From NCBI GenBank assembly GCA_037444305.1, contig JBBIMP010000030.1:346-64345 (forward strand): a stretch of DNA of 64,000 nucleotides. The letters are read 5' to 3'. Source of the stretch: Acidobacteriota bacterium (GTDB lineage: Bacteria; Acidobacteriota; UBA6911). Shown piece by piece: positions 5,667-59,669 of this stretch (position 1 is its first letter; the number at the start of each line of letters is the position of its first letter). The notes beneath the pieces are model-generated. The model had not been told where the DNA came from. It searched no databases and saw only the letters and a program-made list of their open reading frames with translations. The translations under genes were made by a program, and so were the position numbers.

Positions 5667-5684
5667 TCCCCATTCCGCTCTTGC

Positions 5685-5721: not shown

Positions 5722-5970
5722 GAGCAGTTCTCGACGCGGCTGGGCACCAGGGAGTTCGTGATGTACAACAAGCTCGACCGGCATGCGATGACAAGCCACG
5801 CCATGGCCATTCTCAAATCGACGCCCCAGCAGCTTTCCGTCAGGCGGGGGTATTACGCGGTTCACGACGCATCGACCCCGCACTGGAAGTACTTCTGGTT
5901 TGACTGACCTGCGCTCCGGAAGCACAGACCTGCGTTCGCTTTTGGTTGCTCTTCGCGCCCGCCCCCGACG

Positions 5971-11405: not shown

Positions 11406-11509
11406 CTCGGAATTTTCGTGAAATAGGGGGCAGAAAAATCATTGGACGCGGATGAACGCAGACCCACGCGGACAGAGGAACACTGAATCCGTGTGCAGGG
11501 CATTTGCCG

Positions 11510-11606
11510 CCTTTCTTTTCGGGTGAAGGCTGTCGAGCGCTGCCTTTGGTGTTCAAGGAAATGATTCATGAGGAAGCGTTCGACAGCCTTCACCCGAAAA
11601 GAAAGG
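11510..11606. repeat. 97-nt element with 32-bp near-perfect inverted repeats (31/32) flanking a 33-nt loop
   Basis: Arm1 is 11510-11541 (cctttcttttcgggtgaaggctgtcgagcgct). Arm2 is 11575-11606; its reverse complement differs by one base. Two further short GC hairpins follow at 11606-11660. Confidence 0.6.
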
Positions 11607-11715
11607 CCGGCGCGTAGCGCCGGGCCCTGCGGGCCGGCAAAAGCCCTGCCGGCGTTCTTCCGCGTCCCAAAGGCCTTCTTTCCTGAACGGATCTCCGTGT
11701 GCCCTATTTTGGAGG

Positions 11716-40090: not shown

Positions 40091-41536
40091 GTGACGGTGG
40101 CGGCCGCTACGCTGGGTGTCAAGCATCTGCAGGACCGAAGACGGGCGGCGCAGTATTTTACCGAGGCACGGGTGGCGGTGGAAGAGCATTACTCCGGCAG
40201 CAGCCTCAACGGCATGCGGCTGGATCTTCCGTTTCGCGTCGCCGGAGGCGTCCGCAGCACGCAGCCCGGCGAGGGCATGACTAGGGCGGAAATGCTCTTT
40301 CACCGGGCACTCACCCTCGACGAAGACATGCCCGAAGCGCGGCTGGGACTGGCGGCGGTCTATCTGCAGAGCGGCAGATTCGCGCAGGCCCGCGAGGAGT
40401 TCGGCAGGATCCTCGTTCGGCACGGCGGGCATCTGCAGGCGCTCATCGGGAGGGCGGCTGCATATTACGAGGAGGCGCTCTCGGAGCAGGATCCTTTGCG
40501 ACACCAGACGCTCCTTCATTCATCCCTCGCAGACTGTAACCGGGCCCTGCAGGCCGAGCCTCAATCCGCCGAGGCTCGGTACAACCGGATCTGGACGCTT
40601 TATGAACTGGGTCGACACCGGGAGGCGCTCGAAGAGAGCGAGCGCTACCTCGAACAGGATGCCACCTCCATCTGGTCGGCGCGCGTTCGGGAACTCCGGC
40701 GGCGGATGGCGCTTTCGGCCCCGGAGGCTTACAAGGAAGAGGTCCGGCGCGCCGCGGCAGCACGCGATCCGGCTTCGCTCATCACGCTGGTGCAGCTGGT
40801 CCCCGATGTGATCCCGGCGGCCATTCGCCATGCCCTGCAGGGCAGCCTGGATGCCGGCGAGGCATCCGGGCCGTCCGGGACCGGGGCGGACTATCGCTGG
40901 GCAGCGTCGACCATGGAGGGGGCGTATCGGGCGGCCACCGGCGACAATGCCTATGAAAGGCTCATCGACTACGTGGACAGGCTTACCCCCCGGCAGCGGG
41001 AAACCAAGCGCGAATTGGACAAACGCTTCCAGGAGCTGCTGGAACTCCACAGAAAGGGCGAGGCCGCCGCGGTGCCGGCCGCAACCGGCCCCGTTGCCGT
41101 TGCTTTCGAGCGGCTTTACGACTTTTGGCAGCTGGTCAACGTTCATCATCTCCGCGGCAACTGCCGCTTCTACCAGGCGGATTTTGCCGGGCACTCGGAA
41201 TCGATCCACGGAGCCCCTGCGCTCATCCTGCGCAGGGGCAGCGAAGCGCATCGTATGGAGAGCGGAGCGATCCAATCCTGGAATCTCGCGCGCAACCGGC
41301 TCGTGGTTCTGGCCGGCTGCGAAACGGGAACCGGCCCACTCGCCGCCGGGGAGAGTCCCTGGGGTCTGGCGCCCGCCTTCTTCAAGGCCGGCGTCCCGGC
41401 GCTGGTGCTTTCCCTGCTCCCGCTCGAGGAGGCGGCGCTCCGGCAGCATCTCGAGGATTGTCCTGCCTGTCTGGAGCGTCTCGCATCCTACCTGGAGCTC
41501 GTCGGCCGGCCCGCCGCCAGCCTGAAGGTTATGTAG
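40091..41536 (+). CDS. CHAT-domain (caspase-like protease) protein with TPR-like N-terminal repeats; the 5' end is probably truncated or displaced
   Basis: The C-terminus ...FAGHSESIHGAPALIL...LVVLAGCETGTG...GLAPAFFKAGVPALVLSLLP matches the CHAT His/Cys dyad context. N-terminal TPR-like helices are present. The N-terminus (MTVAAATLGVKHLQDRRRAAQYF...) is atypical, and the gene starts 36 nt from the kinase remnant. Confidence 0.55.
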   Translation: MTVAAATLGVKHLQDRRRAAQYFTEARVAVEEHYSGSSLNGMRLDLPFRVAGGVRSTQPGEGMTRAEMLFHRALTLDEDMPEARLGLAAVYLQSGRFAQAREEFGRILVRHGGHLQALIGRAAAYYEEALSEQDPLRHQTLLHSSLADCNRALQAEPQSAEARYNRIWTLYELGRHREALEESERYLEQDATSIWSARVRELRRRMALSAPEAYKEEVRRAAAARDPASLITLVQLVPDVIPAAIRHALQGSLDAGEASGPSGTGADYRWAASTMEGAYRAATGDNAYERLIDYVDRLTPRQRETKRELDKRFQELLELHRKGEAAAVPAATGPVAVAFERLYDFWQLVNVHHLRGNCRFYQADFAGHSESIHGAPALILRRGSEAHRMESGAIQSWNLARNRLVVLAGCETGTGPLAAGESPWGLAPAFFKAGVPALVLSLLPLEEAALRQHLEDCPACLERLASYLELVGRPAASLKVM

Positions 41537-43457: not shown

Positions 43458-43678
43458 GCGTTCTTTCTGCCACAGCGGCCCGTGGAAATACAAATGCAAT
43501 TCCGTTGTATGGTCCCATGCCCTGAATTGCCGCCCCTGCATTTTTGCGGAAGCAAGGGGCACAGCCGGCCGATAAGCGGAAAACGGGCCCCGGCCGGAAG
43601 TGCGTTTCCCGGAAGCGGATGGAATTTTGGGAGCAAAACCACTATGCTGATCAAGCGGTTAACTTGCCCATAGAGAGG

Positions 43679-44305
43679 ATGAGGAAAGTGAAAAATATCT
43701 TGTGCGGCGTCCTGGTTTTTGTGTTGGCATCGGGCTTCTCCCTGCAGGCGCAGAATCCTCCGTCGGCGCCTCGGGCCCCTGCGCAGCCTGCGAAGGTGGA
43801 AAATCCACAGGCGGTACCCAAGGACTACGTGATAGGACTGGAGGATGGGCTCGCAATCGTCGTCTGGCGCGAACCGGAGTTGTCCGTCAAGGAGACCTTC
43901 GTGCGGCCTGATGGCAAAATAACGCTGCCGCTGATCAACGACATCCAGGCCAGCGGCCTGACCGCCGAGCAGCTGCAGGAGCAGATCGCCGAGAAGCTGA
44001 AGGAGTTCGTCGCCGCGCCGAACGTGACGGTCATAATCACCAGGATTTCAAGCCAGAAGGTATCCATCGTGGGCGAGATCTCCGCCCCCGGGATTTACAC
44101 GCTCGGCTCTCCCATGACCGTGCTCGAGCTGATCGCCAAGGCCGGCGGCCTGCGGGAATATGCCAATAAGAAGAAAATCAGGATTGTCCGCGAGGAGGGT
44201 GGCCGCACTCTCCAGTTCATGTTCAATTACAAGGATGTCGTCCAGGGGAAGAACCTGAAGCAGAACATCCCGTTGAAAAACGGCGACATCGTGATCGTGC
44301 CCTAG
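43679..44305 (+). CDS. wza: Polysaccharide export outer-membrane protein (Wza/GumB family; Poly_export + SLBB)
   Basis: DYVIGLEDGLAIVVW...DGKITLPLINDIQASGLTAEQLQEQI...VSIVGEI..PGIY matches the Wza family. An N-terminal signal peptide is present. Confidence 0.8.
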   Translation: MRKVKNILCGVLVFVLASGFSLQAQNPPSAPRAPAQPAKVENPQAVPKDYVIGLEDGLAIVVWREPELSVKETFVRPDGKITLPLINDIQASGLTAEQLQEQIAEKLKEFVAAPNVTVIITRISSQKVSIVGEISAPGIYTLGSPMTVLELIAKAGGLREYANKKKIRIVREEGGRTLQFMFNYKDVVQGKNLKQNIPLKNGDIVIVP

Positions 44306-45118: not shown

Positions 45119-45491
45119 GTCGGCTTCCCCTGCTTTGATGGATGGAAATGTTCGTTAGTGTGCCCGAATTCTAGCATAGCACGGCGGCGCCGCAGCCGAG
45201 GAAAGCCGGATTTAAGGGGCGCGGTAGGCGGAACCGCGAACGCCAGTGAGCGGTCAGCTGCCCCGGTCGGGGGAAGCGACCCGTCGCTGCCGCTCCGGGC
45301 TCCGTGGGATTCCCACCGGCAAACATAACTCGCAGATATGGCAGCGTGGTGCCGTTGCCGTTTGAGCTTGCTTCATACGCGGGAGACATTTTGCGGATCA
45401 GCAAAACAGGGCCGTTCGGCGATTCCGGCTATATGAACATATGGCATTTGTCCAGTCTTCGGGACTACACTGGGACCGGGGAGTTCCGGAC

Positions 45492-46523
45492 ATGGAAGCA
45501 CCGGTCATCATCGGCCTGAACGCCGTCATCGTTGCCGTGACTCAGGAGATTCCGCGCATCCTGACGGTGAAGCGCGCCGAGCACATCCTCGCCGAAAATT
45601 CCGCCCGGACCCGGGGCGGCCGTACGGCCGTGCAAACCCCCGATGCGCTCCCATTCGGCCCGCTCGATCCCGCGGCCGATCGCACGCTCGAACTGGGGCT
45701 CAGGCGCTGGGTGCGCGAGCAGACCGGGATCGAGATCGGCTACGTGGAACAGCTCTACACCTTCGGGAACCGCCACCGCGACCCTCTGGAGCGAGAAGGG
45801 GGGCCGCGGGTCATATCGGTGGCCTACCTGGCGCTGGTGCAGGAGGGCAGGCTGGCGGGGACCGGGGATGCCGTCTGGCGCGACTGGTATCGCTTTCTCC
45901 CCTGGGAGGACTGGCGGCACGGGCGCCCCGAGGTGATCGACGGGATCATCGCACCGGCTCTGGGGCACTGGGTCCGGAAGGCGCCCGGCAAAGGCGCCGG
46001 AACCGAGAGGCGGGAAAGGAGCGACATCTGCTTCGGGCTCCGGGGCGCCCCGTGGGTCGCGGAAAGGGTGCTGGACCGCTTCGAGCTCATTTACGAGACC
46101 GGGATGGCCGAGGAAGCGCAAAGAGACAGGAGCGTCGCCGGGCACCGCGCGGCCGCCGCCGACGCCGCGCCGCCGAGACCGGCCCTCGGCCTGCCGATGG
46201 CGTTCGACCACCGCCGCATCATCGCCACCGCGCTTGGCCGCCTGCGCGGCAAACTCAAGTACCGGCCGGTGGTCTTCGAACTGCTCCCGGAGAGCTTCAC
46301 GCTCCTGCAGCTGCAGCGCGTCGTCGAGGCGCTGGCCGGCATGGAGCTGCACAAGCAGAACCTCCGCCGGCTCGTGGAAAAAGGGGGGCTGGTGGAGGGA
46401 ACGGGAAAGCTCGACGCGCACACCGGCGGCCGCCCCGCGGAGCTGTTCCGCTTCCGCCGGGAGGTCCTGCGGGAGCGCCCGGCTCCCGGAGTCGGACTCC
46501 CCGGCCTGAAGCACACCGGCTGA
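45492..46523 (+). CDS. nrtR: NrtR-like Nudix-related transcriptional regulator (Nudix-like ADP-ribose-sensing domain plus C-terminal winged helix)
   Basis: A degenerate Nudix box (RRWVREQTGIEIGYVEQL). A C-terminal wHTH-like region (FELLPESFTLLQLQRVVEALAG...). It is immediately upstream of nadA-nadC. Confidence 0.6.
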   Translation: MEAPVIIGLNAVIVAVTQEIPRILTVKRAEHILAENSARTRGGRTAVQTPDALPFGPLDPAADRTLELGLRRWVREQTGIEIGYVEQLYTFGNRHRDPLEREGGPRVISVAYLALVQEGRLAGTGDAVWRDWYRFLPWEDWRHGRPEVIDGIIAPALGHWVRKAPGKGAGTERRERSDICFGLRGAPWVAERVLDRFELIYETGMAEEAQRDRSVAGHRAAAADAAPPRPALGLPMAFDHRRIIATALGRLRGKLKYRPVVFELLPESFTLLQLQRVVEALAGMELHKQNLRRLVEKGGLVEGTGKLDAHTGGRPAELFRFRREVLRERPAPGVGLPGLKHTG

Positions 46524-46601
46524 GGCGCGCGGGCAGCCCTTCCGCCACCCCGGTTTCTCCCGGCACAGCCCGGCGGCCGCAAAACAAGTGGCACGCGGGC
46601 A

Positions 46602-46630
46602 TTGACAAGAGTTATGCTCATGCTTAGTAT
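46602..46630 (+). promoter_or_regulatory. Near-consensus sigma70-type promoter TTGACA-17-TAGTAT upstream of nadA
   Basis: ttgaca at 46602-46607, a 17-nt spacer, and tagtat at 46625-46630, inside an AT-rich island within GC-rich DNA. Confidence 0.5.
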
Positions 46631-46639
46631 AAGTGCTGT

Positions 46640-46667
46640 GGGTCCGGCGGGACCGGACCCGTTTTTT
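46640..46667 (+). promoter_or_regulatory. Terminator-like hairpin (gggtccgg-cggga-ccggaccc followed by g+TTTTTT) located between the promoter and the nadA start
   Basis: An 8-bp perfect GC-rich stem, a 5-nt loop and a T6 tract. It could terminate nrtR read-through or act as an attenuator in the nadA leader. Confidence 0.45.
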
Positions 46668-46675
46668 GAATCCCA

Positions 46676-46696
46676 ATATGCTCATAATGAGCATAT
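46676..46696. promoter_or_regulatory. Perfect 21-bp palindrome ATATGCTCAT-A-ATGAGCATAT, a candidate operator (NrtR box?)
   Basis: The two 10-nt arms are exact reverse complements around a central A. It lies 15 nt upstream of the nadA ATG at 46711. Confidence 0.5.
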
Positions 46697-46710
46697 ATAG
46701 GCGCGAAGGC

Positions 46711-47754
46711 ATGGGCACAAAGACGATCGAATTTCCGGCGGACCGGGACGCGCTGGAGTACACCCCCGAAGTCGAACACGGAACCGCCGCCATCTACGAG
46801 CGTGTCCGCCGCGTCATCCCCGAGATCGAGTGGCCGGCCCACGCCCCCTATGTCGCCGCGATCAACGAACTCAAAACGCGGATGAAGGCGGTGATCCTGG
46901 CGCACAACTACCAGACGCCCGAGATCTTCCACGGCGTGGCCGACCTGACGGGAGATTCTCTCGCCCTGGCGCGGGAAGCCGCCAGGACCGAGGCCGAGGT
47001 CATCGTCCTCTGCGGCGTCCACTTCATGGCCGAGACCGCGAAGTTGATGAATCCGGAAAAGACCGTCCTGATCCCCGACCTCGAGGCCGGCTGCTCGCTG
47101 GCCTCTTCGATCACGGCCGAGGACGTGCGCCTTCTGCGGGAGCGCTACCCCGGTGTGCCCGTCGTGACCTACGTGAACACCTCCGCCGACGTGAAGGCGG
47201 CCTCCGACATCTGCTGCACGTCGGCCAACGCGGTGGAGATCGTCGAGGCGCTCGGGTCCGACAGGGTCATCTTCCTGCCGGACGAGTATCTCGGGCGCTA
47301 TGTGGCCTCCCAGACCAGCGTCGAGGTCATCCTCTGGCAGGGACACTGCGAAGTCCACGAGCGCTTCTCGGCGGAAGACCTGCGTGCCTATCGCGAGCAG
47401 TACCGGGACCTCGTCATCCTCGCCCATCCCGAGTGCCCTCCGGACGTGCTGGCGGAAGCCGACTACATCGGCTCCACCTCGGGGATGATACGGCAGGTCG
47501 GCCTGACCAGGCCGAGCCGGGTCGTCATGGTCACCGAGTGTTCGATGAGCGACAACGTGGCGGCGGAATACCCATCGATCGAGTTCATCCGCCCCTGCGC
47601 CCTCTGCCCGCACATGAAACGCATCACCCTGCCCGGAATCCTGCGGTCGCTTCAGACCATGGAGTACGAGGTGACCGTGGATCCCGCCGTGGCCGAAAAG
47701 GCCCGCGAGGCCGTTCAGCGGATGCTCGACCTCGGATCTCGGCCTGCCAAATAA
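46711..47754 (+). CDS. nadA: Quinolinate synthase
   Basis: ...[15 protein letters not shown]...[11 protein letters not shown]...Cys ligands (CSLASS, ...HCEVHE, ...CALCPHMK). Typical NadA. 347 aa. Confidence 0.9.
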
Positions 47755-47755
47755 C

Positions 47756-48628
47756 ATGGCCGCCTCGCCCGAGTTCCTCCCGCCCCTGCACCCGCTGCTG
47801 TATGAAGACCTCGTGCGCCGCGCTCTGCTCGAGGACCTAGGCCTCGCGGGCGACCTGACAACCGACGCCATTGTGCCGCAGGGCCGCGAAAGCGCCGCCA
47901 TAGTGGTGGCGCGGGCCGAGGGCCGGATCGCAGGGCTGGAAGTCGCCTGTTCCGCTTTCCGCCTGCTCGACCCTTCCTCCCGGATCGAGCTTCACGCGCA
48001 TGACGGCGCCGATGCGCCGGCGGGAAGCCGGCTGGCCACGGTCACCGGGTCTGCCCGGGCGCTGCTCTCGGCCGAAAGGACGTCGCTCAACCTCCTCGGG
48101 CGCATGTGCGGCATTGCCACCGCGACGCGCGCCATCGTCGCCGCTGTAGCCGGCCATAACTGCCGCGTCGTCTGCACGCGCAAGACCGCTCCGGGACTGA
48201 GGATGCTCGAAAAGTACGCCGTCCGCGCCGGCGGCGGATTCAACCACCGCTTCGGCCTCGACGACGCCGTCCTCATCAAGGACAACCATCGGCAGATCGC
48301 CGGCGGCGTGGCCGAGGCGCTGCGGCGCGTGCGCAGAGCCGCCGGGCACATGGTGAAGATCGAACTGGAGGTCGACACGCTGGAGCAGCTCCAGGAGGCT
48401 CTTGGCCTGGGGGTGGATGCGGTCCTGCTCGACAATATGCCGCCCGAGATCCTGGCGCGGGCCGTCCGCATGGCCAAGGGCAAGGCGCTCACCGAAGCCT
48501 CCGGCGGCATTACGCCCGCTACCGCCGCTGCCGTCGCCGCCACCGGCGTCGACCTGCTCTCGGTCGGCTGGCTCACCCACAGCGCGCCCGCCCTCGACGT
48601 CTCGCTCGACCTCGCCCACGAGCTATAA
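47756..48628 (+). CDS. nadC: Nicotinate-nucleotide diphosphorylase (quinolinate phosphoribosyltransferase)
   Basis: LYEDLVRRALLEDLGLAGDLTTDAIV...the ERTSLNLLGRMCGIAT...KTAPGLR...LDNM motifs. It starts 1 nt after the nadA stop. Confidence 0.9.
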   Translation: MAASPEFLPPLHPLLYEDLVRRALLEDLGLAGDLTTDAIVPQGRESAAIVVARAEGRIAGLEVACSAFRLLDPSSRIELHAHDGADAPAGSRLATVTGSARALLSAERTSLNLLGRMCGIATATRAIVAAVAGHNCRVVCTRKTAPGLRMLEKYAVRAGGGFNHRFGLDDAVLIKDNHRQIAGGVAEALRRVRRAAGHMVKIELEVDTLEQLQEALGLGVDAVLLDNMPPEILARAVRMAKGKALTEASGGITPATAAAVAATGVDLLSVGWLTHSAPALDVSLDLAHEL

Positions 48629-48771: not shown

Positions 48772-51120
48772 CTAGACCTTGCGGTCGAGGGTCAGCTTCT
48801 GCAGCATGTCGTCGAGCTGCTTCTGCGCCGCGTCTTTCCCGGTCTCCAGCCTGTTCCGCTCCATCCGGATCGCGCCCAGGCGCGTCTCCTGCTGCTCCAG
48901 CTGCCGGATATACCGCTGCCGCAGCGAGGCCTCCTCGGGCGTCTGTCCCAGGCGGGCCAGGTTGCCGCGCACGCGCTCCTGGTCGCGGAAGATCTCGTTC
49001 TGCTCACGGTCCAGCTCGGCCATCTTCTGCGCGAACGCGTTGATCTCGGCCTTCCTGGCCACGATCCCCGAAAGCGCCTTCTCGATTTCCGGATCGATGG
49101 ACCGCTCCCGCACCCAGAGCTGAATCTGCTCCGGCGTGACGTTGCTGATAATGTAGGTCGTCTCCTGGGGGGTTTCCTCGCGCACCGTGAACTCGGTCGT
49201 CGCCTTGGCCTTTGCCTCCACCCGGAACCTGTGGTAGCTGGCCGAGGATTCGGCGGGAGGCGGCGTATCCGCCATTTTCCAGCCGGTGCGCACAGGATGC
49301 TCCAGGATGACCGCCCGGGCCTTCTCGTCATTATTGCGGATCACATAGCTCCGCTTTTCGGTCAGCTTCGAGTGCATCCTCAGGATGCCGCGGTGGATTT
49401 CCACCCGTTCGACCCGCTGCCGCTCGCTCTGCGTTCCGCCGGTAACCTCGAGGCCGAGATCCAGCGCGTAGCTCAGGAGGCGGCTCTCGCCCGGCTGGAT
49501 GGTGTCGACCAGCCCTTCGCCGGCAAAAGCATTGGTGTCGATCACGGTAAACGAACCGCTGTCCAGCGTCAGCCCGCTGGAATTGCGCAGCCACACCGCC
49601 AGGCGCGGCCTGCGCTCTCCCGCCGAGGCGTTGTAGAGAGATACCTTCTCGCCCTCGACTTCCGCATGAAGGATCGGCAGCAGGCCGGACTCGTTCCGGC
49701 GGATCGTGACCGGCTGTTTCAGCCGATATTCGAACTGCTCCCCGAGTGCCTGCGTCTCGGCCCCCGGAGGCGCCTCCTGGCGCATCAGGCCGCCGATCCC
49801 CCCGGCCCTTTCCATGGCAGCCTCCATGGGGGCCGCCGCCGGCGCTATGGCGGCAACCGGTCCCTCGGCCCGGCGCTTCGGCAGGCTCAACCGGTCGTCA
49901 GCCATGGCCTCCATCTCCGCCCCCTGGAGACTGAAGTTCAGCGCCGTTGTCCGGCCCTGGGTTACCTCGATACCCGGGTATTCGGCCCCACGCAGTCCCG
50001 GGTAGCTGGCGCTAACGCGGTAGTTGCCTGCGGCCACCTGGGCCAGGTAGACGCCGTTGCCGTCGGTCGTGACCGTGCGCAAGGGCGACCCGTCCGGACC
50101 GATCACGACAACCGCAGCCCCGGCAAGCGGCCCGCCCCGGGAGTCAAAGACCGACCCGCTGATGGCCGTCATCCCCCCCGGCGCCGCCATCGTTCCTTCG
50201 TGCAGCTGGGGGCTGACCTGGAAGCCCTCCGGCAACGGAACCACCGGGCGGCGCGCATAGACCGGCTGGGAGAGGTTCTGGATGAAGCTGACCGGGGCTC
50301 CCGCCACGAGCGAAAGGGTCACGTCGAGCCAGTCCACGGGCGTCGTGTTGTCCACGATCGCCCAGCCCTGCAGGAGCGGCTTCTGCTTCGGGTCGAGCAC
50401 CACACGGTATGTGGTCTTCCACACCGGCGCCTCGGAGGTATAGCTGACATATAGCTGCCGCTCGCCCGAGCCCGCCGTCTGGATGTGCAGCTTGCGGATG
50501 TCGCGCCGGTGCGTCGTGTTGAGCAGCTCCATGTAGCGGGCCATGTCGGCGGCGAGCTCCGGTTCGGTGAAACGCAGCGAACCCGCCGATTCAAGGTCGA
50601 TCAACCGAAGCTCCCCGCCGCTTGAAAGGAGGGTGATCTGGACATACTGGACGATGGTGCCGGCGCCCGCGCTGCGCGTGCGCAGCTCCGCTCCGACGAT
50701 CTTCCCGGTCACGCTGCCGCCCGGGGCCTTGATCTCCACCGCCGCCCCCCGCAGCTGGTTCAACAGTCCGACTGTGCCCTGCGCGGAATCCAGGTCGATC
50801 GGCAGTTCGGCCAGCCGCCTGTCGAGCGGCGCGCTGGAGTCGTAGGTGACGCCCGTGACCATTCCCCTGCCCAGGTCCAGCACCGTGAGCGACTTCAGCA
50901 CGTCGTTCAGCTGCGTGCGCGGCAACGATATCTCCACCGCCTGGGCGCCCCGGACGGGTCCCAGGTGTTCGAAGTAGCCCATGCCGTTTTTGTAGAGCAC
51001 AACTTTCCGCACCGGCAGCGGGATGGAGTCCTGTGCCGTCAGGAGCCGCTCGGACTCGGCGAGACCGAAGCCCTGCGGGAGCCAAAGGAGAAAGGAAAGC
51101 AAGACGATTCGCTTATGCAT
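48772..51120 (-). CDS. DUF4139/DUF4140-family (MuiA-like, TIGR02231-like) secreted protein with an embedded carboxypeptidase-regulatory-like domain and a C-terminal coiled coil
   Basis: Signal peptide. The N-terminal VVLYKNGMGYFEH segment is typical of the DUF4140 N-terminus. The middle segment GSVFDSRGGPLAGAAVVVIGPDGSPLRTVTTDGNGVYLAQVAAGNYRVSAS is CarbopepD_reg-like. The last about 120 aa are charged and heptad-like. Confidence 0.55.
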   Translation of the reverse strand: MHKRIVLLSFLLWLPQGFGLAESERLLTAQDSIPLPVRKVVLYKNGMGYFEHLGPVRGAQAVEISLPRTQLNDVLKSLTVLDLGRGMVTGVTYDSSAPLDRRLAELPIDLDSAQGTVGLLNQLRGAAVEIKAPGGSVTGKIVGAELRTRSAGAGTIVQYVQITLLSSGGELRLIDLESAGSLRFTEPELAADMARYMELLNTTHRRDIRKLHIQTAGSGERQLYVSYTSEAPVWKTTYRVVLDPKQKPLLQGWAIVDNTTPVDWLDVTLSLVAGAPVSFIQNLSQPVYARRPVVPLPEGFQVSPQLHEGTMAAPGGMTAISGSVFDSRGGPLAGAAVVVIGPDGSPLRTVTTDGNGVYLAQVAAGNYRVSASYPGLRGAEYPGIEVTQGRTTALNFSLQGAEMEAMADDRLSLPKRRAEGPVAAIAPAAAPMEAAMERAGGIGGLMRQEAPPGAETQALGEQFEYRLKQPVTIRRNESGLLPILHAEVEGEKVSLYNASAGERRPRLAVWLRNSSGLTLDSGSFTVIDTNAFAGEGLVDTIQPGESRLLSYALDLGLEVTGGTQSERQRVERVEIHRGILRMHSKLTEKRSYVIRNNDEKARAVILEHPVRTGWKMADTPPPAESSASYHRFRVEAKAKATTEFTVREETPQETTYIISNVTPEQIQLWVRERSIDPEIEKALSGIVARKAEINAFAQKMAELDREQNEIFRDQERVRGNLARLGQTPEEASLRQRYIRQLEQQETRLGAIRMERNRLETGKDAAQKQLDDMLQKLTLDRKV

Positions 51121-51446: not shown

Positions 51447-51474
51447 TTGACTTGATCCGCGTGTGACATAAAAT
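51447..51474 (+). promoter_or_regulatory. Candidate promoter TTGACT-16-TAAAAT for the giant-protein operon
   Basis: It lies in the only AT-rich patch of the intergenic region (gacttgacttgatccgcgtgtgacataaaattaatcaatc), about 60 nt upstream of the predicted start. Confidence 0.35.
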
Positions 51475-51534
51475 TAATCAATCTCTATTCAGAAACCGCA
51501 ACAAGCTTGGGCATTGTTCGGGGAGGCAGCGGCC

Positions 51535-54500
51535 GTGCTCTCGCTCTATCGAGGTTTCACTGCAGTCACGTTCGTCCTCCTTCTCCGCCTTCTCTGCGCT
51601 CCGGGCGGGGCTGCCCCCGGATATGCCGCGCAGACGCAGGATCCGCTGTTCATGTCCGTTTTCCGGACGGAGGGTTCCGTTGCACCGCCGGGAGACTACC
51701 GGATTCTCGTCGGCGGAGAAGGTGCGGCACTGCACTCCGCCACAAAACTGCGTCCCGGCCGCCCCCTGCTTGTCATTGTGGACCCGGGATCTTTTGCGCG
51801 CGAGGCGGCGCGCGAACGCCTCGCGTCGCTGCTGGACAATGTCGAGCGGGTAATGCCACAGGGGCAGCCGCTCCGCTTCGGCATCGCCATCCTGGACGGC
51901 ATCCTCAGAGATCCGGTGGTCGATCCTGCCGAAGCCCGGCGGGAACTCGAGAGCGTGATCCGCAGCTACGTGCCGGAGCGGGTCGAGTTCACCGGCATCG
52001 GCCCCGGGCGGTTCTTCGACATCGTGGCCGGACTGATCGAAAGGGCCCAGGAAGAACAGGGCGATCTGGACTGCCTCCTCCTCGCCCGCGACCGACTCAT
52101 CGAGGACGAAGAAGCGGATTACGTTTTTCGGGCGCTCGAGCGGCGCCTTCTGCACATCTGCCTCCGAAAGGGATCTACCGTTTACGGTTTCATGTCGGAC
52201 AAGGGCATTTGGAGCGGTCTGGCGCCGGCCACCGGGGGCGAGTGGTTCGACTCCTCGGCGGCCCCCGCGGCCGTGGTAGACCTCATATTCCGCAACCGGC
52301 AAAACGGCGTCAGGCTCGAATTCACTGCTGCCGGGGCGGGCGCTGCTGCCGGCCGCCTGCCGATGACGGTGGAATCCGCTTCCGGCGGCGGACCGGCGCT
52401 GCAACTCCGCAGCATGCCGTCGCTCTGGCGCGGCTTTGGCCGGGAGCCGCCCCCGGATTACTTCCGCATCCGCCAGGCGCTGGACTGGAGAAGACGGAGC
52501 CGCGAGGCCGAGGCGGACAACAACCTCACGGTCGCGCTCCGCTTCATCGAGAGTTCGCTCGCCGAGGACCCCTGGAACGGCGACACCCATTTCCAGGCCG
52601 GCCGCCTCGCCTTCCTGCTGAAGGATACAGACGGTGCCGCGGCTTTCCTCGCGCAAGCCATCCGCTTTTCGCCGCCCACCGCCGGCGCGGTGGCGCTCTT
52701 CGCCGAGGTCGGCGAGAAACTGGGCCGGAGCCGCGAAGCCCTGCAGACCCTGCAGGCCATGCGCGACGACGGCCAGGCTTCCGGCCGCGCTATCCTCCTG
52801 GCCCGCGCGCGCCTGCTGGTTTCTTTGGACCGGCAGGCCGAAGCCCGTGCGCTCTACGAGGAATTGCTGCGCGCAGTGCCCGCGGAAATCCGTTTGCAGG
52901 GGGAATACGGCAGGATTCTGTGGTCCGTCGGCGAGCGCGTGCTGGCGGAAAAACTCTTCAATTCGGTCATCGGCCAGGATCCGGAAAACCTTCATGCGCT
53001 GACCGGCCTGTCGGAAGCTGCCCTGGCCAGGCACGATCTCGAGACCGCCTCCGCCTGGGCCGCACGCGCGCTGCAGGCGGCTCCGGGGCAGCCGGACGCG
53101 TTTTTTCAGGCCGGCAGGGTCGAGTTGGCTGCAGGCAGAACGGATCAGGCGTTGAAATCCCTCAGGTCAGCATGGGAAACGGCGCCCCATCGGCACGACA
53201 TACTCTCTGCCTTCGTGGAAGCCGAGATTGGAGCCGACCGCTTTAACGAAGCCAGGCAGACCCTGCTCGAGGCCCAGGCCGCGTATCCCGCCTCCCCAAG
53301 GGTCTACGAGACACTCGCCGGACTCGAGGTCCGCCTCGGCAACCTCGGCCCCGCAGCCACCGTGCTCGAAGCCGGCGCAGCTCTGAGCGGCACCGGCCGG
53401 GCCGAATTGTACCGGCAGGCAGCCGCGATCAGGGAGCGGCGGGGCGAGCATGGACAGGCGCTTCTGGACTACCGCGCAATGCTGCAAGTCGCCGATCCCG
53501 AGGATTCCGGCTCGCTCTCCGCACGTTACGAGCGGCACCTGGCCTACCTGGGCCTGCTTCTCGGGAGCGGCGACAGGAACGCCGACCAGCAACCGACCGG
53601 AGATGACGGGGAGAGCCGCCGGCAAGCTGACAGCAATTCGCAGGCTGTCCCGGCGGGCATCCCGGCCGGCGGGCTGATCATTCCGGGCGGAACCGCGTTG
53701 CTTGCCCGCACCGCCGGCTTGAATCCCGACCAGTTGCACGGACCGCAAGCCGCTGAGCGGCTGTTCCACTTCATCCTAGAAAGCATGCCGCTGGCCGGGC
53801 ACAAAAGCCACGACGCCTCTCTCCGCGGGGATCTGCTGGGCTACCTCCGCGAGTATGGCGCACTCGTCCGGTTCCTCGAAAAACGAGGCTTGATACCGGT
53901 CGCTACGGGTGCGCCCGTGAGCTTCTCGTTTCCCCTCGTCGGCTCGAAACCGGAACTTGAACCGACAAAACGCATCCTCGCCTTCTTCGGGGTGAGCCAC
54001 CGGCTGCGCATGCAGAAGACCGGTCATACGCAGGTGGAATTGACCCTGAAGCAGGGTAGAAAGCACTCGGACAGGCAGCGGCTCCTGCGCAACCTGGGCG
54101 TGAATCTCCTTGATCCCGCCATCCGCGAAGTGCGCTTCACCATCGCGGACGAGGACCTCTTCCTCCACGCCGGCGCCGCGGCCTGGACCGGAAAGATACT
54201 GGACAAACCGGATCTTCCGCCGCGGGACCTGCTCGGGCAGTTCGTCAAGGATCCCGTCGCCATGCAGCTGTACGTCACGCTGGCCGAGTGCTCGGAGGAA
54301 GCGCGGGCGCAGATCGTGTCTTCCTCCGCTCCCGGCGAACTGCTGCGCCAGGCGGAAATGTTGCGGCTGTTTGCCAAGTTCCTCGATGTCCACGCAGGCC
54401 GGCTCTCTTTTCCTGGGGATGACCGGGCCTGGCTCCGCCTTCTCGCCTCCCCGGAGCCGAGGGCTCCCGACGACCTGATGCGTCTGCTCCTGCACCGCGA

Positions 54501-56733
54501 TCAGGGAAGGACCGTGGCGCTGTATGCGCTGCTGGGCGCGATGCCGGAGGCTGCACGGGATTTTCTGACCTCGACGCCGGCCATGCTCGAGGAGTTCTAC
54601 CGCGCAATCTCCGCGAATCTGCCGAAGCTGGATGATCGGACCTCCGAACGCGTGTGGCAAAACGCCACCCGGCTGGCAGCACTCGTCGAGGCCGACGGGC
54701 AGGGCCTCTACATCGGCGTGGATCCGAAGGCCGCCCAACAGCTGCTTTCATCCTGGGAGATTCCCTCCGGCGGCAAAGCCGATTCGCAGGTGCTGCGCCT
54801 GGAACCCCGTGAGTTCGCGGCGCTGCTGGGCAGCGCGGCCACCCTGTCGCGACCGACTTCGTTTCCGGTTGCGGAAGCCCTTGAATTTCTGAGGCAAATC
54901 CGCCGGGAGTATCCGGGCCTTTTCGCCGACCGCCGCGTGCCGGATTTATCGGCCGCCGCGGGGCTCCTGGACCTTGTGTGGGACCTGGCACCCGATTCCG
55001 AGCTTGCCTTCCACTATCTGGAATACTTCCGGCGGCTTGCCGGGCTGCGCCAAAAGGACGAGTTGGTCAACCGCGCCCGCACAAGCCAGGCCCTTTTCGT
55101 CCTGCTCGGCGCGTTCTGCCGCCAGGGAACGCTGTCGCCGCAGGAAGGCAGGCGGCTGCTCGCCGACCTGCTCGACCAATTGCCGGCAGACGAGGAGGCG
55201 GTCTTCGCTTTCCGCGTGGCGGATTATCTCTCGACGCGGCTGCTTCCGGCCTTGGCGGCGGTTCAGGGCGAAGAAATCAAATCCGGGGAGACACTTCTTT
55301 CCGCACTGAGCGGGCCAAAGGGAAAACACCGTGTCCCGCACGACGGGAGAATGTTCGAGGCCGATCTGGCGGTCCACCGGGCAGCCAGGATAAAACAGGT
55401 GCTGCTGCAGCAGCACCACACCCCGCTCGACATTCTCCTGAGGATCTATCGCGAACTTTCGACGCTGCGGCAGGCCGGGGGGGAACGCCAGGCTATCGGA
55501 CCGGTCACGGACGCTATCGGTTTGCTGCAGGTCCCGGAGTTTTCTCCTGGCAAGAAAAAGGCGGCGGAGTCCATTCCGGCGGCGGCTGTTGCCCATCTGC
55601 GATTCATGTGGACGGAAGCGGTCCAGCCGGGCAGAACTCTCCCGGCCAGAGAACGCGAGAGGCTGGTGAAGCAGACGGCCGAAGAACTGCACATTGAGCT
55701 GGGCGTAACCCTCCTGGCCTATGTCTACGCCTTCAGTTCCTCCCCCGAAAACGACGCGCTGGCGTTCGATCCGCTCTTCGTTCGCAAGCACTCATTCGGG
55801 CGGGATGGCACCCCTGGAGGCACCGAGTGGCCCGCGGCGGAACTGCGCGCAGACGAGAAGCTCGGCTCCTTCATCGCGGGCTCGCTCTCCGGATTGGGTT
55901 ACGAGCTTGCCCGGCTGGAAACCGCCCAGGCGGTTACCGGATACGGCACGAAAGCCAGTGGGACGATGCTGCCGACGATGCTGGCCGGCATGCGCGCCGT
56001 TGTGCCGGGATTGCGCAGCGAGCGGGCGCAGGAGTATGTGGCCCTGACCATGCGATTGGGACGGAAGGCCCTCGCCCTTTCCATCCTGGAGGCAGGGTTG
56101 CGGTCCTGGACAGAACATCGGTTGACCCTCCAGGTATCGCCCGGGAGGCGAACGGCGATACTGGATTTCCTCGGGATTCGGAATCTGGATGGAGCATTGG
56201 CACTGCTTTCGCCTTCGGAGTTGTTCCTGCTCGGCCGCGATTATGCCGCAACGAAGGAATTCGAGGACCCTGGCTGCCCCATTGCGAGCCGCCTGCTCGA
56301 GCTGCAGCCCACTCCCGGATCCGAGGAAGACCGGGCGTTCCGCGCGGAGATCGACCAGTACGGCATCCTTCTGAGGAAACGCGCGGGGCTGAACCAGGTC
56401 GCGCTCACCGCTCTGATCTCCTACGAACGGCTCGCGGCGGGAGCCCAGGAAGGCCTGCTCTCGGAGCGGATCTGCGACCTGAAATTCCGCGTGGCGGAAC
56501 TGGCCCATGCGCGTGCCATCCCGGCTCCCCTGGTCGAACTGTTGGGCGAGAGCGCGCTTCGGGACCTGCGGCCGGATCCAGGGGCCGTCGGACCCGACAA
56601 CTGGATGCTGGTCCTCGACCAGATTGCGTATCTGGGCACAGGACACATGCTCGCGTGGATCGAGGAACTGCTCGACAAGGGATTGCTGGTTCCCCTCGGC
56701 GAGAATATCCGGGACGGGAAGGAAATGCCATGA
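51535..56733 (+). CDS. Giant (about 1733 aa) secreted protein: a degenerate VWA-like N-terminal region, a TPR block, and an about 1000-aa alpha-helical domain of unknown function
   Basis: A GGGGAGG ribosome-binding site, then GTG at 51535, giving MLSLYRGFTAVTFVLLLRLLCAPGGAAPGYAAQ (signal-like). A TTG start at 51514 is an alternative. TPR-like repeats occupy roughly aa 330-690. The remainder has no recognisable catalytic motif. The stop overlaps the next start (ATGA). Confidence 0.7.
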   Translation: MLSLYRGFTAVTFVLLLRLLCAPGGAAPGYAAQTQDPLFMSVFRTEGSVAPPGDYRILVGGEGAALHSATKLRPGRPLLVIVDPGSFAREAARERLASLLDNVERVMPQGQPLRFGIAILDGILRDPVVDPAEARRELESVIRSYVPERVEFTGIGPGRFFDIVAGLIERAQEEQGDLDCLLLARDRLIEDEEADYVFRALERRLLHICLRKGSTVYGFMSDKGIWSGLAPATGGEWFDSSAAPAAVVDLIFRNRQNGVRLEFTAAGAGAAAGRLPMTVESASGGGPALQLRSMPSLWRGFGREPPPDYFRIRQALDWRRRSREAEADNNLTVALRFIESSLAEDPWNGDTHFQAGRLAFLLKDTDGAAAFLAQAIRFSPPTAGAVALFAEVGEKLGRSREALQTLQAMRDDGQASGRAILLARARLLVSLDRQAEARALYEELLRAVPAEIRLQGEYGRILWSVGERVLAEKLFNSVIGQDPENLHALTGLSEAALARHDLETASAWAARALQAAPGQPDAFFQAGRVELAAGRTDQALKSLRSAWETAPHRHDILSAFVEAEIGADRFNEARQTLLEAQAAYPASPRVYETLAGLEVRLGNLGPAATVLEAGAALSGTGRAELYRQAAAIRERRGEHGQALLDYRAMLQVADPEDSGSLSARYERHLAYLGLLLGSGDRNADQQPTGDDGESRRQADSNSQAVPAGIPAGGLIIPGGTALLARTAGLNPDQLHGPQAAERLFHFILESMPLAGHKSHDASLRGDLLGYLREYGALVRFLEKRGLIPVATGAPVSFSFPLVGSKPELEPTKRILAFFGVSHRLRMQKTGHTQVELTLKQGRKHSDRQRLLRNLGVNLLDPAIREVRFTIADEDLFLHAGAAAWTGKILDKPDLPPRDLLGQFVKDPVAMQLYVTLAECSEEARAQIVSSSAPGELLRQAEMLRLFAKFLDVHAGRLSFPGDDRAWLRLLASPEPRAPDDLMRLLLHRDQGRTVALYALLGAMPEAARDFLTSTPAMLEEFYRAISANLPKLDDRTSERVWQNATRLAALVEADGQGLYIGVDPKAAQQLLSSWEIPSGGKADSQVLRLEPREFAALLGSAATLSRPTSFPVAEALEFLRQIRREYPGLFADRRVPDLSAAAGLLDLVWDLAPDSELAFHYLEYFRRLAGLRQKDELVNRARTSQALFVLLGAFCRQGTLSPQEGRRLLADLLDQLPADEEAVFAFRVADYLSTRLLPALAAVQGEEIKSGETLLSALSGPKGKHRVPHDGRMFEADLAVHRAARIKQVLLQQHHTPLDILLRIYRELSTLRQAGGERQAIGPVTDAIGLLQVPEFSPGKKKAAESIPAAAVAHLRFMWTEAVQPGRTLPARERERLVKQTAEELHIELGVTLLAYVYAFSSSPENDALAFDPLFVRKHSFGRDGTPGGTEWPAAELRADEKLGSFIAGSLSGLGYELARLETAQAVTGYGTKASGTMLPTMLAGMRAVVPGLRSERAQEYVALTMRLGRKALALSILEAGLRSWTEHRLTLQVSPGRRTAILDFLGIRNLDGALALLSPSELFLLGRDYAATKEFEDPGCPIASRLLELQPTPGSEEDRAFRAEIDQYGILLRKRAGLNQVALTALISYERLAAGAQEGLLSERICDLKFRVAELAHARAIPAPLVELLGESALRDLRPDPGAVGPDNWMLVLDQIAYLGTGHMLAWIEELLDKGLLVPLGENIRDGKEMP

Positions 56734-59669
56734 GGTTGAAGATCGTCTTGCTCTTTATGTTCGCAGCGGTTGGCGCTGCCGGCGCACAGGGGCAACAGGC
56801 GCGGGAAACCGCGCCGTGGACCTATAACATCCGGTCCCATTTGGTGCAGTTCTACCTGACCGTAACCGAGGGCCCGCGCCGGGTCACGGGCCTCGACAAG
56901 TCCGCCTTCTCGCTCAAGGAGGATGGAATCCCCCGGGAAGTGCACCGCCTCGACGCTGGCGAGGTGCCGCTGCAGATCGCGCTTCTGCTGGATACGAGCG
57001 GAAGCATGCGCGAATCTCTGCCCGTGGTTCAGGAGGCGGCGGTATATTTCTTGCAAACCCTCAGGCCCGCCGACAGGGTGACGCTTGTCCCCTTCAACGT
57101 GGACATCCATCACATTTCGCAGCTGACCAATGACCGGCAGCCGCTGGTGCAGGCCATCCGCAGCACCCAGGCGAGAGGGGCCACCAAGCTGTACGATGCG
57201 CTGCTGTACGCCATGAAGCTCCTCGCCGACAAGGAGGGACGCAAGGCGATCGTCGCCTTTTCGGACGGCCAGGACACCGGCCTGAGCGCGTCGCTGGATC
57301 TCGTGCAATCGGCCGCAGCGAGGTACGGTTTTCCCATCTATACGATCGGCGCGGGCGCAGGCCTGCGGAGCGACGACCTGCGGAGGATCCTGCTCCAGAT
57401 TGCAGAGATCAACGGCGGCCGGACCTACTACGTCAAGGAACCGGGGGAACTCCGCACCGCCTTCGAGGAAGTCGGAGAAGAATTGCGGTCCGCCTACGTG
57501 CTGAACTACTACACGACCGTTCCCCACGACGGCCGCTGGCACGATGTCTCGATCCAGGCAGCCAATCCCAGATACCGGGTACACACGAGGCGGGGATTTT
57601 ACGCCAGGACCGGAGGCGCAGGCCCGTCGTTCAGGGACGCCATCGAACCGGGTCCGGGAAAACCGGCGGCCATTCCGGCGCTGACCGGCCCCGACGCCGC
57701 ACGCGTGGCGCAATCCGCCGAGGCCGCGGCGGCCGAGATCCTCAACCCTGCGATCCCGGACAGGCAGATAGACGCGGCGCGCATCCGGAGCGCCCTCGCC
57801 TCGGCGGAAAAGGAAACGAGGCCTTCCGGCAAGCCTCTGTTCAAAGTCGAAACGCGGTTTGTGGAGGTCCCGGTCCTGGTCGAGTCCCTGGCCGGAAGGG
57901 AAATACCGAAGCTCACCGCGAAGGATTTCCGCATCTACGAGAACAACACGCGGCGCGAAATAGCCTTTTTTGATCCCGAGCTCGAGGCAGGCGGTGTGGC
58001 CCAGATGCGGGATACCGCCATCCGCAGGCTGCGAAAGGCGGACGACGAAGCAGCGCTCGCGCCGGCGGCGAGCGAGCCGCGCGATCTCGTGCTCGGGCGC
58101 GTCTACCTGGTGCTGGACAACCTGTCCTCCGCGGCGCAGACCTTTCTCGAAATCAAGCGCGCCGCAGAGCGGATCGTCCGGGAGCAATTCACCCCATTCC
58201 GGCCCGTTTCGCTGCATCTGACGAGCGATGCGGACGCCGATGTGCTGCCGGCTTCGGATGTCGATGCCCTGCTGAACAGGATACGGCGCGCCTCGCTGCC
58301 GGCCGGATCCGCCCCGCTGCTGCACGAAAAGATCATGAACATTCACGAAGCCTACCTGATCGACCGGGGAAACATGGACGCACAGCACCTGGCGGAATTG
58401 CGCCTGGCCTACAGCCTGGGAGTGCAGCACTTCAACGAACTCGGGCAGGTGGACGGCCAGGAGGTGATGTCGCCCGAAGCAATCGAACGGGAGGTCGTCA
58501 ACACCAGCCGGCAGCTCATAGCCCTGAACTCCTCCCTCGTCAACCGCGTCTGCGACGGCTTGCGCGTGGTCGTCAACGCCGCAGCCGCCGATCCCGCCGG
58601 CTATCCCAAGACGGTGATTTTTGTCTCCTCGGGAGTGGTCCTCGGTTTCGGCGAGCTTTCCGGGCGGCTGGAGCACGTGCTGCTGGAGGCCAGGAGAAAC
58701 GGAATCCGTGTGTTCTCCATCGATGCCGCGGGGCTGACCCTCTCTCAGCCTTATTCGATCGAGTCAGGCGCCGGATACCTGGTGCGCAATCCCCATCTCA
58801 CCTCCCTGCTCCTGCAGCACAATGACGGATTGTCGCTCGAGCAAAAATCCTCGTTGACTCGCATGGCGGAGAAAACCGGCGGGCGCTTTTTTCACTCCAC
58901 CAACGACCTTGCCGGATCCGCCGCCGTCGCTGCGCGCACGACCGGCCGGATCTTCTACCTGGGATACCTGTCCACCCAGCCGGCGGACGGGAGGTTCCAT
59001 CAGATACGCGTGACTACCTCCGAGCGGTCGGTGCGCCTGCATGCGCGGAAGGGCTACTATGCCATCACACGAGGCGCGGCGCAGGCGGCATCGGAAACCG
59101 GTACCGAGGAAGAAGACTGGGGCGCCGTCCTGAAGCTTGCAGCCGAAGGGCTGGCCGCCGGCAATACTCCGATCGTGATCCAGAGCCTGGAAAAACTCAC
59201 GGCCAGGTTTCCCGATGAGGCCGGCCTCTGGTACAACCTGGGCGCGGCATACCTGAAGGAGAACAACGCAGAGGCCGCCATTGAACGTCTGCAGAAGGGG
59301 TTCGCGCTTGCCCCGGGCGACAGGGAGATCGGCACGACCCTTGCGCGGGCTCTGGTGGCCGGAGGCTATACGGATGCCGCTGCCGATACCCTCGTCAGCC
59401 TGCTGCGGCGATATCCCGGTGATGCCGAGCTGTTCCTGAATCTGGGCAGGGTTTACGAGGCGGCTTCCCGCACGGCCGAGGCTTTCCAGGTCTACCGGAG
59501 CATGCTCGACATGAGGGCGGCGCTCCCCATCGAGGTCTATCTCGCGCTGACACGCACTTCACTCAGCCTGGGCCGCAAGGTGGAAGGCGCGCTGTTCATC
59601 CGGGACTACCTGGAGAACGGGGGCGATCCGTCTTCCGTACGGCCGTGGCAGCAGGAACGGTCTCCCTGA
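56730..59669 (+). CDS. Tandem VWA-domain protein of the Acidobacterial VWFA-related type (TIGR03436-like x2) with C-terminal TPR repeats, secreted
   Basis: Signal peptide MRLKIVLLFMFAAVGAAGAQ. Module 1 is a beta-sandwich (TYNIRSHLVQFYLTVTEG...) followed by a VWA domain with the MIDAS motif LLLDTSGSM. Module 2 (FKVETRFVEVPVLVESLAG...EIAFFD followed by ...VIFVSSG...) has no DxSxS. The C-terminal TPRs include WYNLGAAYLKENNAEAAIERL. Confidence 0.75.
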   Translation: MRLKIVLLFMFAAVGAAGAQGQQARETAPWTYNIRSHLVQFYLTVTEGPRRVTGLDKSAFSLKEDGIPREVHRLDAGEVPLQIALLLDTSGSMRESLPVVQEAAVYFLQTLRPADRVTLVPFNVDIHHISQLTNDRQPLVQAIRSTQARGATKLYDALLYAMKLLADKEGRKAIVAFSDGQDTGLSASLDLVQSAAARYGFPIYTIGAGAGLRSDDLRRILLQIAEINGGRTYYVKEPGELRTAFEEVGEELRSAYVLNYYTTVPHDGRWHDVSIQAANPRYRVHTRRGFYARTGGAGPSFRDAIEPGPGKPAAIPALTGPDAARVAQSAEAAAAEILNPAIPDRQIDAARIRSALASAEKETRPSGKPLFKVETRFVEVPVLVESLAGREIPKLTAKDFRIYENNTRREIAFFDPELEAGGVAQMRDTAIRRLRKADDEAALAPAASEPRDLVLGRVYLVLDNLSSAAQTFLEIKRAAERIVREQFTPFRPVSLHLTSDADADVLPASDVDALLNRIRRASLPAGSAPLLHEKIMNIHEAYLIDRGNMDAQHLAELRLAYSLGVQHFNELGQVDGQEVMSPEAIEREVVNTSRQLIALNSSLVNRVCDGLRVVVNAAAADPAGYPKTVIFVSSGVVLGFGELSGRLEHVLLEARRNGIRVFSIDAAGLTLSQPYSIESGAGYLVRNPHLTSLLLQHNDGLSLEQKSSLTRMAEKTGGRFFHSTNDLAGSAAVAARTTGRIFYLGYLSTQPADGRFHQIRVTTSERSVRLHARKGYYAITRGAAQAASETGTEEEDWGAVLKLAAEGLAAGNTPIVIQSLEKLTARFPDEAGLWYNLGAAYLKENNAEAAIERLQKGFALAPGDREIGTTLARALVAGGYTDAAADTLVSLLRRYPGDAELFLNLGRVYEAASRTAEAFQVYRSMLDMRAALPIEVYLALTRTSLSLGRKVEGALFIRDYLENGGDPSSVRPWQQERSP

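Follow-up and report, generated by a model that had tools for sequence, protein, structure and literature searches.

This locus raises the question of what is made by two long genes that are read in tandem from one strand of a 64,000-nt stretch of Acidobacteriota DNA (contig JBBIMP010000030.1 of assembly GCA_037444305.1, positions 346 to 64,345 of the forward strand; hereafter the window). The upstream gene, open reading frame 1 (ORF1), encodes a giant protein that ends in a helical part of about 1000 amino acids (aa), here called the C-module. The downstream gene, ORF2, encodes a protein with two von Willebrand factor A (VWA) modules, and both products carry tetratricopeptide repeats (TPRs). 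A first-pass annotation, made from the letters of the window, had proposed the pair as a candidate for an uncharacterised system. We find that the two genes form a real, widespread two-protein module which is uncharacterised, its VWA and TPR components being ordinary in themselves. In the reading that we prefer, to which we give a probability of roughly 45%, the cassette encodes an exported, stoichiometric complex of two proteins, in which the metal ion-dependent adhesion site (MIDAS) of the VWA protein would be bound to, or operated through, the C-module, and no ATPase would take part.

The pair was found repeatedly outside the window. Close relatives of ORF1 (31-38% identity in the C-module) occur at 11 genome loci, all in metagenome-assembled genomes (MAGs) of Acidobacteriota or Terriglobia, and on metagenome contigs; the close-orthologue loci are L003-L005 and L010-L020. 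In every close locus with downstream DNA, an ORF2 orthologue with 47-49% identity and the same VWA-VWA-TPR layout lies 3' of the giant gene on the same strand. At the orthologous junctions the genes either overlap by 4 nt, as in L004, L005, L009, L015 and L016, or stand no more than ~27 nt apart. For distant members of the family (18-23% identity) and for proteins made of the C-module only, the next gene begins at -4 to +14 nt and encodes a protein of ~285-307 aa that consists of a single module of the VWA family TIGR03436 (141-176 bits). One such minimal pair is that of L009, at 1357-4497 and 4494-5393. When metagenomes were scanned with a distant-subfamily (subfamily B) profile, 80 loci were obtained, 9 of which lack enough downstream sequence to assess. 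In all 71 assessable loci, a TIGR03436-type VWA module on the same strand begins 47-225 nt past the end of the match to the giant protein. The same gene pair in about 85 independent loci is far beyond chance.

This survey shows that the two genes are conserved as neighbours, so that the refuting condition set by the first-pass annotation did not arise, and that the core is smaller than had been thought: what recurs is the C-module plus a single VWA module of ~290 aa. Presumably these two made up the ancestral cassette, and the N-terminal domain of ORF1 (N-domain), both TPR arrays and the second VWA module of ORF2 are lineage-specific additions. When the 1361 ORFs that flank the cassette in 95 loci were clustered all against all, no further gene proved to be conserved; the largest cluster of flanking ORFs came from 8 closely related loci. 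The first-pass annotation had also remarked on the absence of MoxR and Bat genes. That holds at this locus and beyond it, as no MoxR, DUF58 or Bat gene was found in the window neighbourhood or among the 95 related loci.

Two departures from the usual arrangement were seen among the close loci. In L017, from the Terriglobia MAG MFD04408.bin.2.106, 1.3 kb separate the giant and VWA genes (11132-12418), and this spacer holds a 150-aa IS200/RAYT-like ORF with an HVH motif (11307-11759) together with repeats resembling repetitive extragenic palindromes; L013 is another copy of the cassette in the same MAG. In L004, the giant gene (1561-6802) is split into three overlapping ORFs of 440, 767 and 577 aa, with a Y1_Tnp transposase gene just upstream, and is either a pseudogene or the product of assembly frameshifts. 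Similar single breaks are present in L013, L016 and L019.

The coordinates of the features are collected in Table 1. The ORF1 frame opens at a TTG codon at 51514, and its likely start is the GTG at 51535, where the public gene call also begins; the stop codon is at 56731-56733. Both ORFs exist as the first-pass annotation described them, except that its lengths of 1733 and 980 aa had counted the stop codons, the true lengths being 1732 and 979 aa. The ATGA overlap of the two genes was likewise confirmed, and each ORF has its own start, stop and signal sequence. The promoter candidate upstream of ORF1 matches at 10 of 12 positions, with one such site found against 0.1 expected in shuffled sequences. 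No terminator-like site was found 3' of ORF2.

That the pair might be two unrelated neighbours, or a single gene broken up by an error of sequencing that shifts the frame, is an explanation that we count as refuted. Such artefacts do occur, as shown by the Logan assembly L004 with its giant gene broken into three frames. Here, by contrast, an independent gene caller found the same two genes on record GCA_964538715.1 (a MAG whose contig CAZIEJ010000004.1 contains the window), and the identical pair (ORF1 protein P0001), with the same two-gene structure, is present in an independent Logan assembly (L002). ORF2 opens with a signal peptide and a Shine-Dalgarno-like sequence of its own, gene order and strand are kept in the ~85 loci, and the orthologues are always two genes. 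A frameshift at 56730, which would have fused them, was not seen. Coupled genes that each have their own start, stop and signal sequence are therefore not a frameshifted fusion.

In each protein a single segment is hydrophobic, that at the N-terminus (Kyte-Doolittle value of at least 1.6 for ORF1), and a hydropathy scan gave no internal transmembrane helix in either. The signal peptides of ORF1 homologues are clearer than that of ORF1 itself, and the partner VWA proteins elsewhere have an N-terminus of the same type as ORF2. TPRs were called in both proteins with Pfam models above their gathering cut-offs. In line with the first description, both products thus have TPRs and an N-terminal segment of export-signal type.

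ORF2 belongs to TIGR03436 ('acidobact_VWFA' of NCBIfam), which we take to be a VWA family expanded in Acidobacteria and one of their larger paralogue families. Its score of 275.6 bits, in two stretches, is above the curated cut-off of 81.25 bits, and it matches the Pfam VWA model with 75.6 bits. Module 2 alone scored 127.5 bits against TIGR03436, and the two modules aligned with each other with an hhalign probability of 98.5% (E 2e-15). The MIDAS of module 1 is complete, with D88, S90 and S92 (DTSGS, aa 88-92, 56991-57005), T152 and D179. Module 2 has DNLSS and VSSG at the MIDAS positions, a degenerate state which is common to its orthologues. Family scores, profile alignment and residues all agree with the earlier description of a duplicated VWA protein whose MIDAS is intact in the first copy and lost in the second. 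All 52 non-redundant partner modules have the five MIDAS residues unchanged, position 90 being either S or T, which argues that metal-dependent ligand binding by the partner VWA protein is under strict selection.

Like the two modules of ORF2, the short single-module partners of the distant members all score above the TIGR03436 cut-off, and the 11 genome loci fall within the phylum for which the family is named. In these loci a subset of the family is obligately linked to a specific helical protein of ~1000 aa, and ORF2 adds a second module without a MIDAS and a set of TPRs. Literature searches returned no described function or partner for TIGR03436, nor this pairing. On acidobacterial VWA/TPR proteins they returned nothing functional, one genome paper merely listing VWA paralogues.

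The constant partner of these VWA proteins is the C-module. A word-indexed homology search found only three proteins, the ORF1 product and two relatives, whereas an exhaustive hidden Markov model search with a C-terminal profile gave 721 family members at E<=1e-3, 108 of them at E<=1e-30 (counts are representatives of 50%-identity clusters). These are either ORF1-like proteins of ~1700 aa, or proteins of ~1000-1150 aa made of a signal peptide and a C-module starting from [IV]PGG; in their sources they are named just 'hypothetical protein'. In a Pfam scan of 32 diverse members only TPRs were found, plus Peptidase_C14 in three, and the 21 module-only members scanned gave nothing recurrent, even at E<=1. 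ORF1 itself has no match but TPR models, aa 1-340 and 700-1732 being without a Pfam or NCBIfam family. An alignment of full-length ORF1 against PDB sequence profiles returned TPR proteins only, and the C-module-only alignment returned no match.

Conservation was counted over 70 C-module sequences, in ORF1 numbering. P960, W966, Y1398 and G1449 are invariant, and G718, G719, Y913, Q1293, A1399, D1412, R1417, H1419, F1421, R1538, Y1630, E1631, R1645 and W1690 are conserved in at least 90%. Segment-against-segment hhalign comparison of the C-module gave no extended internal repeat or solenoid, a short PGG-helix motif being found twice. The [IV]PGG-helix motif (53665-53770, aa ~711-745) resembles the invariant P-G...W motif (54394-54495, aa ~954-987), ~245 residues away, over 34 columns (hhalign P 2.4e-4). 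In the distant subfamily, an invariant C-x-H-x-H (CSHPH, around residues 1608-1620 of P0128) stands just before the conserved P-Y-E; the ORF1 subfamily has no Cys or His at this position, and the motif may be a subfamily-specific metal site.

An AlphaFold2 model of the C-module, built from the 70-sequence alignment, had a mean predicted local distance difference test score (pLDDT) of 89.8 and a predicted template modelling score of 0.91, with 776 of 1033 residues at pLDDT of at least 90. It predicts a single compact body, mostly helical, with a beta-alpha-beta-beta-alpha-beta insert (module residues ~96-171) and three beta-hairpins. Foldseek comparison with PDB gave a best E value of 0.064 at a template modelling score of ~0.1, and there was no match in BFVD. 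The helical-bundle adaptors vinculin, alpha-catenin and the talin rod match the model over ~90-180 of its 1033 residues, with 5-12% identity, a level typical of generic helical packing; none of them matches globally, and nothing points to homology. Neither the sequence-profile nor the Foldseek searches gave a confident match, so the description of the C-terminal ~1000 aa as helical and without a recognisable family was upheld.

Three family members, P0078, P0095 and P0100, have a caspase domain (Peptidase_C14) in place of the N-domain, and they are the only such members among those scanned; the Pfam scan of ORF1 gave no Peptidase_C14 match. None of the three genes has a VWA gene directly downstream. 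Those of L102 and L103 adjoin genes for Ser/Thr protein kinases and DUF4384 proteins, and that of L008 has neither. We compared the 36 most conserved C-module positions between these three variants and 67 ordinary members. D1412 is D in 66 of the 67 ordinary members and K, S or Y in the variants, two of the variants lack R1417, and Y1398, H1419, R1538, E1631 and R1645 are kept in all three. D1412 is the only conserved acidic residue which tracks the presence of the VWA partner. In integrin I-domains, the MIDAS metal ion binds an acidic side chain of the ligand. Because D1412 is lost where no VWA gene lies directly downstream, and by analogy with these I-domains, it would be the prime candidate for completing the metal coordination of the partner's MIDAS.

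From these results a mechanism can be proposed. The VWA subunit would grip an acidic side chain through its MIDAS metal ion, in the manner of integrin I-domains, and the likeliest ligand would be the C-module itself, via D1412 in the D-P-x-F-V-R-K-H loop. The helical body may serve as a platform, possibly with a binding or catalytic pocket formed by Y1398, R1417, H1419, R1538, E1631 and R1645. The TPR arrays and the two VWA-type modules without a MIDAS, that is the N-domain and module 2 of ORF2, would be scaffolding that enlarges the assembly. Such a complex would need no ATPase and would be extracytoplasmic, working either in the periplasm or at the cell surface of soil Acidobacteriota. Its most plausible role would be in adhesion or in the assembly of the envelope or surface. 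A more specific version, which we hold tentatively and below even odds, is that the C-module is a new fold serving as MIDAS partner of this TIGR03436 subset, the two forming an ATP-independent extracytoplasmic machine that would be widespread in soil Acidobacteriota, with D1412 as metal-bridged contact. This machine would be either a complex for adhesion or for surface or envelope assembly, or a new pair of enzyme and adhesin.

Several points weigh against the two-protein complex. Export of both proteins is judged from hydropathy only, the N-terminus of ORF1 is less canonical, with an Arg within its hydrophobic core, and the final location could be the periplasm, the outer membrane or the medium. 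The complex is proposed here from the genes and from a single-chain model of the C-module, the novelty of whose fold is relative to PDB and BFVD only. The D1412 correlation rests on three variants, probably of one clade, and the conserved positions L936, L1504 and P1663 also differ in all three. Furthermore, the conserved polar residues could equally fit an enzymatic C-module and a VWA protein that binds a third, external ligand.

This last arrangement is the substance of a rival that we consider unlikely and yet weigh seriously: the C-module would be an extracytoplasmic enzyme of new fold, acting for example on polysaccharide, lipid or peptide, and the MIDAS-bearing VWA protein would be an adhesin that targets it to a substrate or surface by binding an external ligand and not the C-module. 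The near-invariant polar residues Y1398, R1417, K1418, H1419, R1538, Y1630, E1631 and R1645 resemble an active site, five of them (Y1398, H1419, R1538, E1631 and R1645) are kept in the caspase-headed variants, which lack a directly downstream VWA gene, and subfamily B adds its invariant C-x-H-x-H. MIDAS domains, those of integrins and of pilus-tip VWA adhesins among them, commonly bind external ligands. However, the C-module model has no similarity to a known enzyme fold and its sequence gives no signal in Pfam or PDB, strict coupling of translation at 1:1 better fits a stoichiometric complex, and the D1412 pattern points to a contact between the partners.

It seems quite improbable to us that the cassette encodes a VWA/TPR envelope complex related to Bat (Bacteroides aerotolerance, BatA-E) but lacking MoxR, with a function in oxidative-stress tolerance. 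ORF2 has a BatB-like VWA plus TPR layout, the TPR arrays of ORF1 and ORF2 recall those of BatB, BatC and BatE, and the NCBIfam model of Leptospira BatA is matched weakly by ORF2 (27.3 bits) and by the short partners (21-43 bits); these scores are far below its cut-off of 380 bits, the VWA modules belong to TIGR03436, and the 95 related loci gave no BatD gene either. More generally, the cassette resembles the BatA-E and MoxR-DUF58-VWA operons of Bacteroides and Leptospira in that an envelope-directed VWA protein, or a VWA plus TPR protein, is encoded with TPR proteins. It differs from them in having no MoxR AAA+ protein, DUF58 protein or BatD, in that its main partner is a C-module for which Bat operons have no counterpart, and in the cleavable-type signal sequences of its VWA proteins, BatA and BatB being membrane-anchored. 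Slightly more remote still is a module for conflict or defence, of vWA/caspase/TPR type and located in the cytoplasm or at the membrane, after the nucleoside triphosphate (NTP)-dependent conflict systems of multicellular bacteria, whose domains include vWA, caspase/CHAT and TPR. The caspase-headed family members, some of them beside Ser/Thr kinases and DUF4384 proteins, and a TPR plus CHAT gene 10 kb upstream in the window would fit it. Against this stand the export-type N-termini of both proteins and of nearly all partners, the variable flanks with no defence-island signature and no conserved NTPase or effector nearby, the fact that the CHAT gene is not linked at other loci, and a PADLOC search in which neither ORF1, ORF2 nor the neighbouring protein of 782 aa matched any family.

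In its proposed chemistry, the complex with a MIDAS bound to the C-module resembles the integrin alpha-I domain and the VWA adhesins of pilus tips and surfaces, such as CglB of the Myxococcus gliding machinery, PilY1-type proteins and RrgA. They share with it an extracytoplasmic VWA domain whose MIDAS is complete (D-x-S/T-x-S, T, D) and should bind, via the metal, an acidic residue in the ligand. The model of GltE, a TPR lipoprotein of the Glt gliding system, also gives a weak TPR match. The cassette differs from these systems in that no pilus, sortase or Glt genes lie near it, the generic VWA fold is the only sequence relationship, and the proposed ligand is the partner protein encoded with it.

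With this cassette, a subset of TIGR03436 is tied to a fixed partner, a family of 721 clusters that is absent from Pfam, NCBIfam and PDB. Acidobacteriota rank with the most abundant bacteria of soil, and the pair provides a defined two-protein unit for asking what their surface VWA proteins do, with the contact between MIDAS and D1412 as hypothesis. The C-module is also a candidate for a new fold by comparison with PDB and BFVD; should the fold indeed prove new and form a machine of a new type, the cassette would be in a category of its own.

The first-pass annotation had suggested that the N-terminal region of ORF1 is derived from a VWA domain and has no MIDAS. The second part stands: ORF1 has VDPGSF and subfamily B has D-t-L-s-p at the place of the first motif, and neither the T nor the D position is conserved. 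The VWA origin found weaker support. The N-domain is kept between the two subfamilies (hhalign probability 96%, E 4e-9), and neither a sequence-profile search against PDB nor a word-indexed homology search gave a match, nor did Pfam or NCBIfam. Its 60-sequence profile aligned with the 51-sequence profile of the partner VWA proteins over 213 collinear columns with P 5e-4 and a probability of 31%, and with module 2 of ORF2 with P 0.003. The former alignment pairs PLLVIVD with LLLDTTGSM, DCLLLARDR with AIVvFTDG, GSTVYG with GvPIYTI and ATGG with TGG. This weak but collinear signal makes a degenerate TIGR03436-type origin of the N-domain likely but does not show it.

Table 1. Features of the cassette (positions in the window) and of caspase-headed relatives (positions in the named loci)
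Feature	Position	Strand	Remarks
Sigma-70-like promoter candidate	51447-51474	+	TTGACT-16 nt-TAAAAT, 5' of ORF1; pattern match only
Shine-Dalgarno-like GGGGAGG	51520-51526	+	8 nt 5' of ORF1 GTG; direct read
ORF1	51535-56733	+	1732 aa: signal sequence, N-domain, TPR array, C-module
ORF1 N-terminal hydrophobic segment	51535-51618	+	aa ~4-28; presumed signal peptide or anchor; Kyte-Doolittle
ORF1 N-domain	51667-52554	+	aa ~45-340; kept in both subfamilies; probably degenerate, MIDAS-less TIGR03436-type beta-sandwich plus VWA
ORF1 TPR array	52585-53484	+	aa ~351-650; TPR_19 70 bits, TPR_14 39 bits, others
ORF1 C-module	53659-56703	+	aa ~709-1723; opens with IPGG at aa 716-719
C-module signature YA...D-P-x-[FL]-[VL]-R-K-H-x-F	55726-55797	+	here Y1398-A...D1412-P-L-F-V-R1417-K-H1419-S-F1421
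Shine-Dalgarno-like GGAAGGA	56717-56723	+	within the end of ORF1, 7-13 nt 5' of ORF2 ATG
ATGA start/stop overlap of ORF2 and ORF1	56730-56733	+	direct read
ORF2	56730-59669	+	ATG start, 979 aa: signal peptide, VWA module 1 (with MIDAS), module 2 (without MIDAS), TPR
ORF2 signal peptide	56730-56786	+	aa 1-19, ...AGA/QG
ORF2 module 1	56829-57605	+	aa 34-292; TIGR03436 beta-sandwich plus VWA, MIDAS intact
ORF2 module 2	57837-59063	+	aa ~370-778; TIGR03436, ~90-aa insertion, MIDAS lost
ORF2 C-terminal TPR array	59127-59534	+	aa ~800-935; TPR_19 40.7, TPR_14 34.8, TPR_17 31.6 bits
Caspase-headed giant gene, L008	5340-10538
Caspase-headed giant gene, L102	314-5668
Caspase-headed giant gene, L103	6001-11334

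The surroundings of the cassette in the window are varied. Upstream on the + strand lie the NrtR, NadA and NadC genes, an NAD-biosynthesis cluster with a Nudix-type regulator (45441-48628), and before them a gene for a Wza-like Poly_export/SLBB protein (43544-44305). The TPR plus CHAT (caspase-like) protein, of 481 aa, is encoded at 40091-41536 (+), ~10 kb upstream. Directly upstream and divergent (48772-51120, - strand) is the gene of the 782-aa protein, with CarboxypepD_reg and DUF4139 domains and a weak similarity to the MuiA family (mucoidy inhibitor). Downstream and convergent are a photolyase gene and then a gene for an NmrA/DUF2867 protein. The DUF4139/MuiA-like, photolyase and NAD genes were considered as parts of the cassette and rejected; neither they nor the NmrA/DUF2867 gene recurs beside the cassette at any other locus. 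On the same contig past the 3' end of the window (L001, 23203-25199), ~5-7 kb downstream of the cassette, are toxin-antitoxin-type genes: an HTH_3/Gp49 pair, a nucleotidyltransferase and a ParE toxin.

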